Positions 22,703 to 24,547 of a stretch of 39,825 nt of DNA are shown piece by piece; within the stretch, counting starts at the first letter, position 1; every line of letters starts with the position of its first letter. Location of the stretch: the sequence record MH031343, one strand, 5' to 3'. Under the pieces are notes generated by a model that was not told the DNA's origin, did not search any database, and saw nothing but the letters and a program-made list of their open reading frames with translations. Source of the DNA: Escherichia phage vB_EcoP_S523. Position numbers and translations under genes: made by a program.

Positions 22703-23293
22703 TTAGCGAGACAGCAGACCACCAGTGAAGGCATCACCATCAAGCATGTTGAAGTTACCAAAGTCCAGTTCATACTCGTGACACTGCATCTTCGCTTCTT
22801 GTTCTTCTTCAGCCAACACTGCGTCAATCTCAGGAGCACCAAAGAACCTGTTGTTAAACTGACGGGCAGCTTTAGTGACAATCCAGAAGCGGAAGCACTC
22901 AGGCATCTCGTAGAACTCGCGGAGCTTGATGATGGTCACAGTGATTGGGTTCTGGAACACATCGGTTCCTGTAGTCCGGTCATAGACGTAACCACCACGG
23001 TTAACGTAAGCGGTCGCGCCTCCTTCAGACAGTACGGACAGGTAGTCGGACATATAGGGAATCAATCCGTTGAACACATCGGGAAGTAACTGTTGGTCTT
23101 CCTCAATGTTGAACGTCCAGCCCTTAGATTGAATCTGACGGTTAATCTTATTGAGCACTCGACGAGCATTGGCAACATCGGCGTTAGCATCACCTTCCAA
23201 AGTGGAGACTGGCGGTTCACCGATAGAGGCCAAGATGTCATTGACCGCAGCCAACTCTTCGCCTGTCTCTAGGGTTGTTTCATAGGAACGCAT
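22703..23293 (-). CDS. tail tubular protein A (gp11), 196 aa
   Basis: ATG at 23291-23293 gives MRSYETT...; same length as T7 gp11 with conserved [24 protein letters not shown]. Confidence 0.9.
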
Positions 23294-23315
23294 GTTGGTA
23301 TCCTCCTGTTGTAGC

Positions 23316-23358
23316 GAAAAAAAAACCCTCAAGCACCCGCGAAGGCACCCAAGGGGTT
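23316..23358 (-). terminator. late terminator (Tphi-like): GC/GU-rich hairpin followed by a U9 tract
   Basis: Minus-strand RNA AACCCCUUGGGUGCCUUCGCGGGUGCUUGAGGG-UUUUUUUUU; same architecture and position (after capsid gene 10) as T7 Tphi. Confidence 0.7.
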
Positions 23359-23369
23359 TCATATAGTTA

Positions 23370-24547
23370 TCATTCAGTAGCAGCTAACTCAGCTTCCTTT
23401 CGAGCCTTGTTTGCCGCACGGGTACGGGCAGCTTTCTGTTGTGGCGTTAGCTCTTGCTCAACTTCAGTAAGGGACTCAGTGTCCCCTACGAGTTTGCGAG
23501 AAGTTAAGCCTTGTTGAAAACCAGCGCACCACATGCTTCAGGGCGCAGACCACCGTGACCCATAGCGTACTTAGCGATAATCTGGTCTGCTTGGAAGTTA
23601 GCTCGACGAGCACGTTCCAGTGCCATATCTTTCAGCTTAACAGTACCAACGGCAGAGCGGTGATTGAACAGACCGACAACGTTGTCCAGAGCAACACGGG
23701 TGTCACCAGAGGAAGTCTCAGGGAACGCATGTTTCTGACCAGTCGGATTTACACCTTCTTCTGGACGGTCTTCGCCAGCACCACCAGCAGTCAGATGCGG
23801 AACCTCAATAACTTCGAAGCCCATAACGTTGCGGATAGAGCCAGTAGACGGGTCAATCAGAGCCTGATAGTTTGCAGCGTTAGGCATCAGAGCAGCCAGA
23901 ATAGCAGAGTAGTTGTCTGGAGTGGTGTAGAACACACGGTCAGCAGACGGAACATAGTTGCTAGTCAGCTTGGCACGAGCCAGAGTTAACTGTGCGATAA
24001 TAGCCTGACCCAGCTTAACTTGGTCTCCCTGAAGATCAGACTGCTTGCCAACTTCCAGTACATGAGCCTTACCGAGACCAGCGATGTTCTCATCAGACGC
24101 AGACGGAAGGTTACACAGTTTAGCCATTTCAGCCAGAACCGCGCCATCAGCAGCCATCGCAAGAGATTCACCCAACTGTGCGGTATACTCGGAGCGCACG
24201 TCATAGTGGTTCATTGCGTCTTCGATGTCGTAAATCAGAACGTCAGCAGTCAGCAGACCATCAATGTTGATGACCTTCTCAGTGTGCTTCATGTCTTTAC
24301 GTTTGTCATCGAGGTTCTCACCCGGTTGCAGGTAAGCAGCTTTGGTACGACCCAGCACAGGGAACTGCGCGGACTTACCGGACTGAATAGAACGCACGAG
24401 GTGTTTGTTCATAGTAACAGAGGTACGAGTAAACGCGGTCAGAACTTCACCACCGAACACTTTCAGGAACAGAGCCAGTTTATCACCAGCAGACATACCT
24501 TTACCTTGGTCTTTACCAATTTGCTGACCACCATTCATCTTAGCCAT
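23370..24547 (-). CDS. minor capsid protein 10B, predicted -1 frameshift product of gene 10 (about 49 extra residues)
   Basis: GGTTTTC at 23516..23522 just before the 10A stop; the -1 frame stays open for [49 protein letters not shown] to a TGA at 23370..23372, just upstream of Tphi. Confidence 0.5.
23504..24547 (-). CDS. major capsid protein 10A, 347 aa
   Basis: Colinear with T7 gp10A ([41 protein letters not shown]). Confidence 0.95.
   Translation of the reverse strand: MAKMNGGQQIGKDQGKGMSAGDKLALFLKVFGGEVLTAFTRTSVTMNKHLVRSIQSGKSAQFPVLGRTKAAYLQPGENLDDKRKDMKHTEKVINIDGLLTADVLIYDIEDAMNHYDVRSEYTAQLGESLAMAADGAVLAEMAKLCNLPSASDENIAGLGKAHVLEVGKQSDLQGDQVKLGQAIIAQLTLARAKLTSNYVPSADRVFYTTPDNYSAILAALMPNAANYQALIDPSTGSIRNVMGFEVIEVPHLTAGGAGEDRPEEGVNPTGQKHAFPETSSGDTRVALDNVVGLFNHRSAVGTVKLKDMALERARRANFQADQIIAKYAMGHGGLRPEACGALVFNKA

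Follow-up and report, generated by a model that had tools for sequence, protein, structure and literature searches.

The −1 frameshift in gene 10 of bacteriophage T7 was reportedly described by Dunn & Studier in 1983 and by Condron, Atkins & Gesteland in 1991. The shift gives rise to two proteins, 10A and 10B, and 10B has been demonstrated in T7 (PMC5009743, PMC1635266). On its own, the T7 heptamer supports less than 1% frameshifting, versus about 10% in its native context (PMC1635266). The CCCC of the downstream terminator has been implicated in T7 frameshifting, and a 2016 recoding review, which lists G_GUU_UUC as a known intermediate case, calls the 3′ requirement of T7 unexplained (PMC5009743). 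In phages T3 and phiYeO3-12, the homologous capsid gene likewise has a −1 shift a few codons ahead of its stop, and a C-terminally extended minor capsid protein results (PMC5009743). Their slippery site is the lysine site C_CCA_AAG, and the T3-type extension, roughly 90–98 aa long, carries an unrelated Ig-like Big_2 domain (Pfam PF02368, E = 1.6e-15). Frameshifting of the Escherichia coli dnaX type uses A_AAA_AAG flanked by a Shine-Dalgarno sequence on its 5′ side and a hairpin on its 3′ side. Nearer to the phage studied here, SDS-PAGE combined with MALDI mass spectrometry has revealed the 10B protein in virions of Kluyvera phage Kvp1 (Lingohr et al. 2008, PMC2579914).

Here we analyse gene 10 of Escherichia phage vB_EcoP_S523 (MH031343), a Berlinvirus with about 94% identity to 285P, BSP161, BA14 and PZJ0206, and 94–99% identity overall to its Berlinvirus relatives. 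The window referred to below is the whole stretch analysed, 39,825 nucleotides in length. The 10A/10B frameshift in S523 is already known in kind, and is a further example of textbook recoding. We consider it highly probable, at roughly 93%, that ribosomes undergo a programmed −1 frameshift on the capsid mRNA of this T7-like phage.

The S523 locus shares the T7 gene 10 arrangement

Gene 10 lies on the minus strand, like the other genes of the genome (Table 1). Its zero-frame product is a homologue of T7 gp10A, matching Pfam PF21703 (Gp10A-like; E = 9.5e-108) and the T7 10A chain of PDB entry 2xvr (E = 2.7e-167; also 3j7v). The heptamer is identical to that of T7 and agrees with it in phase and in distance from the 10A stop; in S523 it is followed by AAC AAG GCT TAA, which places it three codons ahead of the terminating triplet. 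From position 23522, the −1 frame contains 49 sense codons, counted from Phe, so that the predicted 10B protein comprises residues 1–344 of 10A and a further 48 aa, 392 aa in total. The tail is homologous to that of T7 10B (BLASTP E = 3e-12), with a shared core beginning LTPAQ(K/E), and is common to 40 unique loci. Unlike the T7 tail, which extends 53 aa past the Phe, it is 48 aa long, and its N-proximal half is unrelated in sequence to the T7 SGVMLGVASTVAASPEEASVTSTEET. Directly after it, again as in T7, comes a T-phi-type terminator beginning AACCCCUUGGG; a terminator scan placed a hairpin with a T-run at 23355..23326, 14 nt past the 10B TGA. The downstream limit of the element is set by the gene 11 start codon, ATG 23293, which is preceded by an AGGAGG Shine-Dalgarno sequence.

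A sequence-only reading of this DNA had proposed a conserved −1 frameshift giving 10B. The GGTTTTC that it placed three codons before the 10A stop is correct in coordinates and sequence, on the minus strand; translation bears out its −1 frame, open for 49 codons to the TGA; and its two further proposals, an extension like the T7 10B tail and a Tphi-like hairpin after the 10B stop, agree with the BLASTP match and the terminator scan. With the capsid homologue, heptamer, tail and terminator in place, the sequence elements of the T7 10A/10B system are present in S523, and the proposal as a whole is supported. The T3-type elements differ: S523 lacks C_CCA_AAG and has no A_AAG context, and its tail lacks a Pfam domain. 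Searches of Pfam and of the PDB matched no domain in, and no solved structure covering, the 10B tail.

Table 1. Coordinates of the features of the gene 10 frameshift locus in phage S523
Feature	Coordinates	Strand	Description	Basis
Gene 10A, major capsid protein	24547..23504	minus	347 aa, zero frame	ORF list
−1-frame stop TGA	23540..23538	minus	Five codons upstream of heptamer	ORF list, sequence
Slippery heptamer GGTTTTC	23522..23516	minus	Phase G_GTT_TTC; Val343-Phe344 in zero frame	Sequence
10B-specific coding sequence	23370..23516	minus	48 codons (QQGL...AATE) + TGA 23372..23370	Translation
Spacer AACAAG	23510..23515	minus	6 nt, heptamer to hairpin	Sequence and fold
Predicted bipartite RNA hairpin	23456..23509	minus	54 nt, candidate 3′ frameshift stimulator	Fold
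Hairpin lower stem	23509..23500 with 23465..23456	minus	GCUUAACUUC (holds 10A UAA) pairs with GAAGUUGAGC	
10A stop TAA	23506..23504	minus		Sequence and ORF list
Hairpin upper stem	23489..23481 with 23475..23467	minus	GUAGGGGAC pairs with GUCCCUUAC	
Hairpin apical loop	23480..23476	minus	ACUGA	
Conserved tail core	23406..23450	minus	15 residues; protein-level constraint	Alignment
T-phi-like intrinsic/T7-RNAP terminator	23316..23356	minus	ACCCCUUGGGUGCC-UUCG-CGGGUGCUUGAGGG then U9	
Gene 11 (tail tubular protein A)	22703..23293	minus		Sequence; annotation of relatives

Comparative evidence distinguishes the site from a chance open frame

The heptamer departs from the X_XXY_YYZ rule: UUUC fits as YYYZ, and G_GU is an imperfect X_XX, unlike the canonical dnaX heptamer. 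A rival reading is that there is no recoding at all: the 3′ untranslated region would happen to be open in the −1 frame, and the heptamer would only mirror codon preference. CTG, GTT and TTC are the preferred Leu, Val and Phe codons of gene 10A, and GGTTTTC is not enriched in the window, with 3 occurrences against about 5 expected. From the base composition of the window alone, a 50-codon open frame has p ~0.07; in an empirical count, 0.7% of the −1-frame positions within genes stay open for 50 codons. In-phase G_GTT_TTC has a single instance among coding-strand ORFs of at least 100 aa. By themselves, neither the heptamer nor the open frame exceeds what chance would give, and the weight of the case lies with the comparative evidence. 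The significance of the site follows from the homology of the tail, from selection specific to its frame, and from the association between the slippery codon pair and the extension.

That association is strong. Among unique loci of relatives, the Val-Phe codons are GTT_TTY in 47 of the 51 that have a −1 extension, but in just 1 of the 18 that lack one, where the remainder use the non-slippery synonymous GTC_TTC or GTG_TTC (Fisher p = 1.7e-11, without correction for phylogeny). Across the whole tail, pN/pS is 0.54 in the 10B frame versus 1.08 and 1.38 in the other frames. Within the conserved core, 28 unique nucleotide versions gave pS 0.59 and pN 0.087, a ratio of 0.15, in the 10B frame, versus ratios of 3.9 and 3.1 in the other two; synonymous change is near-saturated over an almost invariant peptide. 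Judged by these substitution ratios, purifying selection acts on the −1 frame and on neither of the others, and it is strong in the core. Such selection, the homology to T7 10B, the codon choice of extension-less relatives and the demonstration of 10B in both T7 and Kvp1 make it extremely unlikely that the open frame is a chance feature with no recoding.

The heptamer itself is present in the T7 form and phase in 35 of the 40 unique loci with a T7-type tail; in five lineages whose tails are intact, its first base is A or C. Since re-pairing from GUU to GGU leaves a central mismatch in the P site, and since these first-base variants occur, slippage may depend mostly on tRNA-Phe. Comparative data show different tails swapped at the same site among relatives, and in some Yersinia pestis phages the 10B tail is cut short. 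Because of these natural truncations, 10B would be dispensable in at least some settings, and they suggest that the fitness role of the tail is conditional.

A published Kvp1 mass fits the predicted junction

The −1-frame TGA upstream of the heptamer and the 10A stop confine the shift to 23537..23504, a stretch of 34 nt. This is wide enough to consider that a longer capsid protein might be made by another route, through RNA polymerase slippage on the T-run or ribosomal slippage elsewhere in the stretch, and several relatives do have a stronger extra site downstream. Many Berlin-like phages have a lysine site, C_AAA_AAG, and BA14 has U_UUA_AAA_AAG just downstream of the heptamer; it is the only relative with A_AAA_AAG at this position. 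S523 has AAC AAG rather than AAA AAG, and the lysine slippery site is thus absent. A run of four T, as found in S523, is far shorter than the homopolymer runs known for polymerase slippage.

The position of the shift can be read from phage Kvp1, which is nucleotide-identical to S523 over a stretch that starts upstream of the heptamer and takes in the 10B stop and the terminator stem, and whose 10B tail is identical. The two differ in their 10A bodies, which are about 98% identical, in the 3′ arm of the terminator (GAGGGU9 in S523, GAGGGGU6 in Kvp1) and in a phi11 promoter that follows the terminator in Kvp1 and is absent from S523. A 43.6 kDa band from Kvp1 virions contained gp10 peptides (70% coverage) together with tail peptides, and peaks at m/z 2244.123, 2372.219 and 2692.310 were reported; iodoacetamide was used in the procedure (PMC2579914). 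For the 20-residue tail peptide we calculated a mass of 2244.124, and for the same peptide with an N-terminal K, 2372.219. The 25-residue junction peptide, with carbamidomethyl-Cys and oxidised Met, has a calculated mass of 2692.308. All three peaks agree with the predicted tail and junction peptides within 0.002 Da. The junction mass fits ...ALVF|QQGLTSR only; we tried the alternatives ...LVFN|QGL..., ...LVFNK|GL... and ...AL|GFQQ..., and none fits. A shift by another route or at another codon is accordingly extremely improbable. Mass spectrometry of virions for a junction peptide was the check put forward in the sequence-only reading, and the published Kvp1 data, obtained from an identical nucleotide stretch, in effect supply it. 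By analogy with Kvp1, 10B would be expected in S523 virions as well.

The same spectra bear on whether the tail is instead a separate small gene. A 54-aa ORF (23534..23370, minus strand) opens with an ATG of its own that shares the −1 frame of the tail; stand-alone short CDSs of the 'major capsid protein 10B' or 'head protein' type are annotated in Salmonella phage BSP161 and in Yepe2, and the tail alone is matched by PHROG families 12582 and 20538, two 'head protein' families of 52 and 38 positions. The ATG at 23534, however, has no Shine-Dalgarno sequence 5–13 nt upstream (CGCCCTGAAGC) and arises only from the Ala-Cys codons GCA TGT. Berlin-like relatives with Ala-Val (GCAGTAGG), and the whole T7 group, have no ATG there and keep the tail. 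With gp10 and tail peptides together in the 43.6 kDa band of Kvp1, and a mass that fits the fused junction, expression from a separate gene is highly unlikely.

A predicted hairpin encloses the 10A stop codon

Downstream of the heptamer, the mRNA is predicted to fold into a bipartite hairpin with the 10A stop codon within its 5′ arm (Table 1). The minimum free energy is −26.2 kcal/mol (z = −4.0), and 0 of 200 shuffled sequences fold as well. The 6-nt spacer falls within the 5–9 nt that is canonical between a −1 slippery site and a stable structure. RNAalifold gave the same structure on 12 Berlin-like sequences. Among Berlin-like phages, 97.8% of alignment cells are paired, versus 30–51% in slid controls, and there are 5 compensatory pairs, this covariation deriving from about three divergent lineages (L016, L099/L109) and minor variants. 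A covariance model search of 57 sources, including 16 metagenome loci, recovered the Berlin-like group only and zero new lineages. Rfam 15 gave two chance-level matches over 23250..23650 (E = 5 and 8) and no frameshift-element family.

T7 differs in that its local hairpin is of another sequence, and in that covariation support is found in the Berlin-like group and not in the T7 group. For the latter, RNAalifold predicts an analogous hairpin enclosing the UAA; 98.4% of cells are paired, but there are 0 compensatory pairs and shuffles score equally, so these sequences are only compatible with the fold. Klebsiella-phage-like loci (L119-L126) have the heptamer and tail and no convincing hairpin (z = +0.3). 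We regard the hairpin as a plausible local stimulator of slippage, judging from the fold and the covariation. A tentative idea, which we hold to be rather unlikely, is that it serves as the main local stimulator in Berlin-like phages and has a counterpart of similar architecture in T7. If the hairpin does act in this way, constraints of RNA structure would be the main influence on the N-proximal half of the tail, and protein function would shape only the C-terminal half.

The hairpin seems to be undescribed in the accessible literature. The authors of the Kvp1 study reported 'no typical slippage site' and sought a pseudoknot at the terminator, and the local hairpin is not described there (PMC2579914). 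In that study and in the AP5 paper, pseudoknots were sought elsewhere or none were found.

The mechanism we propose would run as follows. Most ribosomes would read G_GUU_UUC AAC AAG GCU UAA and produce the 347-aa 10A protein. A minority would slip back by one base while tRNA-Val occupies GUU in the P site and tRNA-Phe occupies UUC in the A site; these two tRNAs would re-pair with GGU and UUU, the next codon would be CAA, and translation would continue for 48 codons to UGA 23372..23370. The product would be a 392-aa minor capsid protein, 10B, with an acidic linker followed by a basic, conserved C-terminal segment. The most likely stimulator of slippage would be the bipartite hairpin 6 nt past the heptamer, which would sequester the 10A stop in its 5′ arm, and the terminator region, lying about 160 nt beyond the site, may also play a part, as it reportedly does in T7. 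The tandem-slippage geometry is inferred, and so are stimulation by the hairpin and the terminator and any role that the tail may have. By analogy with T7, the efficiency would be about 10% (PMC1635266).

S523 would share its general mechanism with dnaX: tandem slippage that is stimulated by a hairpin some 6 nt past the heptamer (PMC1635266). Unlike in dnaX, the S523 heptamer is non-canonical (G_GU in place of X_XX) and frameshifting lengthens the zero-frame product instead of shortening it. No clear upstream Shine-Dalgarno-like stimulator of the dnaX kind was identified in S523.

The terminator and annotation of gene 10

The terminator folds at −18.8 kcal/mol (z = −3.0), and its AACCCCTTGGG...CTTGAGGGG T-run is conserved in nearly all relatives. 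CCCC 23356..23353 corresponds to the element of the T7 terminator for which an effect on frameshifting has been reported; it lies about 160 nt from the slippery site, versus more than 200 nt in T7. The CCCC is invariant everywhere among relatives, and hence offers no covariation to evaluate. We considered long-range pairing of this CCCC with GGGG 23486..23483, which would form at most 5–6 bp, and dropped it because the G-run is not conserved in the T7 group and the CCCC is invariant and already paired in the terminator. In T7 itself, GGGGG occurs at a place similar to that of the S523 GGGG.

The appropriate annotation for gene 10 of S523 is 10A together with a joined CDS for 10B, which on the minus strand is 24547..23516 + 23516..23370, with base 23516 read twice. 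The stand-alone 54-aa 'head protein' is an annotation error, common enough to yield PHROG families of its own. For the specialist, the modest interest of the locus lies in the codon pair that tracks the extension, the covarying hairpin around the 10A stop and the exchange of tails, which leave the picture of T7-type recoding unchanged. Relatives have already been annotated along these lines: the joined 10B CDS of Kvp1 is said to be one that 'results from ribosomal frameshifting', and the note in BA14 states that it 'may be translated via slippery sequence'.

A −1 frameshift site at the 3′ end of gene 10A

The sequence-only reading had placed a GGTTTTC heptamer three codons before the 10A stop, with the −1 frame open for 49 codons to a TGA at 23370..23372, a Tphi-like hairpin just beyond it, and an extension resembling the T7 10B tail. 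The site is confirmed as described. Heptamer and open frame are exact: the codons at the 3′ end of 10A are CTG GTT TTC AAC AAG GCT TAA, and minus-strand translation of 23522..23370 gives 50 residues, ending at that TGA. A hairpin with a T-run follows, and the extension is homologous to the T7 10B tail (E = 3e-12). Because an upstream TGA blocks the −1 frame, entry is confined to the 34 nt 23537..23504. The predicted 10B comprises 10A residues 1–344 plus 48 residues, 392 in total.

Features of the gene 10 frameshift region
Feature	Sequence	Coordinates	Strand	Remark
Gene 10A (capsid, 347 aa)		24547..23504	minus	TAA at 23506..23504
Upstream TGA closing the −1 frame	TGA	23540..23538	minus	five codons 5′ of heptamer
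Slippery heptamer	G_GTT_TTC	23522..23516	minus	three codons ahead of 10A stop
Lower stem	GCUUAACUUC with GAAGUUGAGC	23509..23500 with 23465..23456	minus	10A UAA inside 5′ arm
Upper stem	GUAGGGGAC with GUCCCUUAC	23489..23481 with 23475..23467	minus	loop ACUGA
Hairpin with T-run (terminator)		23355..23326	minus	14 nt past TGA 23372..23370

Within the window, GGTTTTC occurs 3 times against ~5 expected, and 10A prefers CTG (25/33 Leu), GTT (15/24 Val) and TTC (9/10 Phe). Fifty open codons have p ~0.07 by base composition, and 0.7% of intragenic −1-frame positions stay open that long. Taken by itself, then, the window's heptamer and open frame are not beyond chance, and the evidence comes from comparison across phages.

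Relatives and existing annotation

In the gene 10 region, the window shares 98.7% identity with Enterobacter phage PZJ0206 and 97.6% with Salmonella phage BSP161; for Kluyvera phage Kvp1 and Escherichia phage BA14 the figure is ~95%. Compared over 25 kb, it is ~94% identical to 285P, BSP161, BA14 and PZJ0206. These relatives are members of the genus Berlinvirus (Autographiviridae, Studiervirinae), which makes the window a T7-like phage genome in reverse orientation. In the Kvp1 record, 'major capsid protein 10B' is a joined CDS marked 'results from ribosomal frameshifting', and the T7 record likewise joins 10B; BA14 10A is said to be one that 'may be translated via slippery sequence', giving a longer C-terminal tail. 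In the BSP161 and Yepe2 records the tail is a separate small CDS. PHROG families 12582 and 20538 ('head protein', 52 and 38 positions) match the tail only (E = 1e-19; window 23370..23534, minus strand), and appear to have been built from 10B tails mis-annotated in this way as stand-alone genes, a systematic artefact.

Comparative evidence for recoding

We compared 144 related loci from viral contigs, metagenome contigs and GenBank records. A core, LTP(A/Q)Q(K/E)AA(R)TRA(A)NK, is common to 40 unique loci. The 10B frame had a whole-tail pN/pS of 0.54, the two remaining frames 1.08 and 1.38. Across 28 distinct nucleotide versions of the 15-codon core, the 10B frame had pS 0.59 and pN 0.087 (ratio 0.15), and the others had ratios of 3.9 and 3.1: the peptide hardly varies, with synonymous differences nearly saturated. 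This selection on the core excludes the reading of the −1 frame as a chance ORF.

Presence of the extension and choice of the slippery codon pair go together across these sequences. Among unique loci encoding Val-Phe here, GTT_TTY is used in 47 of 51 with a −1 extension versus 1 of 18 without (Fisher p = 1.7e-11, uncorrected for phylogeny), the remaining loci having GTC_TTC or GTG_TTC. The exceptions are Yep-phi (L092), a Berlinvirus whose tail is truncated; L059, L063 and L076, with an A_AAG lysine site just 3′; and L068, whose −1 frame simply continues into gene 11. The first heptamer base is not strictly required: five lineages whose tails are intact have A or C there, which suggests that the essential step is tRNA-Phe re-pairing from UUC to UUU.

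The junction in Kvp1 virions

No nucleotide differs between the window and Kvp1 over a stretch that starts upstream of the heptamer and takes in the 10B stop and most of the terminator. Kvp1 virions contain a 43.6 kDa band above gp10; MALDI of this band gave 70% gp10 coverage and three extra peaks, m/z 2244.123, 2372.219 and 2692.310, assigned to residues 327–372, and the authors, who used iodoacetamide, deduced a −1 frameshift 'at TTTTCA' (Lingohr et al. 2008, PMC2579914). We calculate MH+ of 2244.124 and 2372.219 for tail peptides of 20 and 21 residues, and 2692.308 for a 25-residue junction peptide with carbamidomethyl-Cys and oxidised Met, the oxidation being our assumption. Moving the junction by one codon in either direction puts the calculated mass at least 14 Da away from the third peak. 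The fit therefore places the junction at Phe344|Gln, as slippage on G_GUU_UUC predicts.

This fused peptide contradicts a stand-alone 54-aa gene encoding the tail from ATG 23534, a start codon without a Shine-Dalgarno sequence and missing in many relatives that retain the tail. The junction mass also speaks against a different slip site or polymerase slippage; the window has no A_AAG site, and the T-run at the heptamer is short for polymerase slippage. The 10A/10B frameshift interpretation is thus supported. The feature is already known, being textbook in T7 and demonstrated on identical sequence in Kvp1, and its value for this genome is correct annotation.

Slippage and candidate stimulators

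In the proposed mechanism, the tRNAs on GUU (P site) and UUC (A site) would both slip one base 5′, onto GGU and UUU, making CAA the next codon. Such movement of both tRNAs is tandem slippage, with which the Kvp1 junction is consistent. The G_GU of T7 gene 10 is a known imperfect X_XX, and the terminator CCCC, >200 nt 3′ of the T7 site, is involved in a way still unexplained (review PMC5009743). Native T7 frameshifting is ~10%, versus <1% for GGTTTTC alone before a reporter (PMC1635266), so 3′ context is needed. We infer that a bipartite hairpin starting 6 nt past the heptamer may act as a stimulator, and that the conserved terminator may also contribute.

The predicted hairpin encloses the 10A stop codon (MFE −26.2 kcal/mol, z = −4.0; none of 200 shuffles was as stable). 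RNAalifold returned the same structure for 12 distinct Berlin-like sequences, in which 97.8% of cells are paired, falling to 30–51% when the 3′ partner is slid. Five pairs are altered on both sides (e.g. C-G to G-C, U-A to G-U, U-A to G-C, G-C to A-U or C-G), the changes stemming from about three divergent lineages, and the peptide encoded across the hairpin varies while the pairs stay. A covariance-model search with the hairpin found no further lineages. An analogous UAA-enclosing hairpin is predicted in the T7 group, where the covariation test gave no support, and Klebsiella-phage-like loci show no convincing hairpin of this kind; a stem starting 5–7 nt past the heptamer is predicted in 10 of 12 lineage representatives. 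The covariation-supported hairpin around the stop codon is the only mildly new element.

On the 5′ side of its 10-nt internal loop (UCUCGCAAA, 23491..23499, minus strand), UCU CGC (Ser-Arg) is kept in 11 of 12 Berlin-like sequences, BA14 having UCU CAC, yet Ser and Arg have six synonymous codons each. Such conservation could point to an RNA-level function of the loop, for instance a tertiary contact; we found no partner sequence.

The terminator (23316..23356, minus strand) is a conserved element whose CCCC, at 23356..23353, is the counterpart of that in T7. Its 3′ arm is GAGGG plus U9, versus GAGGGG plus U6 in nearly all relatives, so that in the window the first C of the CCCC is left unpaired. 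Contig L089 shares the GAGGG change, for which AAAACCC on the 5′ side compensates. A phi11 promoter (...TAATAGACTCACTAATGGGAGG) lies between terminator and gene 11 in Kvp1 (L002 1627..1649) and some relatives (L011, L012), and is absent from the window (23294..23325, minus strand), BA14 and BSP161; in PYPS50 (L015) an extra ORF inserted directly after the 10B stop takes its place.

The tail and its variation

The tail consists of an acidic linker and a basic segment, the latter probably helical. A Pfam scan found no domain in it, no solved structure covers it, and the literature examined states no function for T7 10B. In T7 display, peptides are fused to the gp10B C-terminus, and the vector determines how many copies a virion carries, from <1 to all 415 (PMC3444042).

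In Berlinviruses of Yersinia pestis the heptamer is retained and the tails are damaged. Yepe2 (L004 1388..1538) has lost the 10A stop (TAA to CAA), and its 10B is cut short after ...AANKGS by an inserted A; the Yep-phi (L009/L092) tail ends after 21 codons. Such truncations suggest that phages can do without the tail in some settings, or that this lineage is losing it. The core motif turns up as well within non-capsid ORFs on much larger, unrelated viral contigs (L117 15..632, 205 aa, on a 108-kb viral contig; L128 417..872, 151 aa; L141, a 230-kb metagenome contig), and one of these ORFs has a CxxC...CxxC segment; the motif may be a portable short module.

In BA14 (L001 1479..1497, window 23522..23504), G_GTT_TTA_AAA_AAG replaces G_GTT_TTC AAC AAG, creating overlapping canonical U_UUA_AAA and dnaX-like A_AAA_AAG sites ahead of the same −1 tail, and numerous other Berlin-like phages carry TTC_AAA_AAG. 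Relatives, unlike the window, may thus have two slip sites into one frame.

Two IMG/VR contigs (3300034349_000001, L049; 3300034127_000003, L065) carry GGTTTTT at the same position, with a −1 frame of >405 codons running past the end of the fetched locus. This frame codes first for a Big_2 Ig-like domain (Pfam E = 5e-11) and beyond that for ~320 aa, which contain an FEGDSL (GDSL-like) motif and match no Pfam family; frameshifting may here display an enzyme on the capsid. Extension types at the one shift position form four combinations (L013, L019, L021, L080; L056–L067; L017–L028): Big_2 extensions lie behind T3-type C_CCA_AAG, G_GTT_TTC or x_ACA_AAG, and (G/C)GTTTTC precedes a 93–98-aa domain (…TVAIGGDSLKVTL…TNTLYFKG…) without a Pfam match. 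Capsid tails appear to be swapped as modules at one recoding site.
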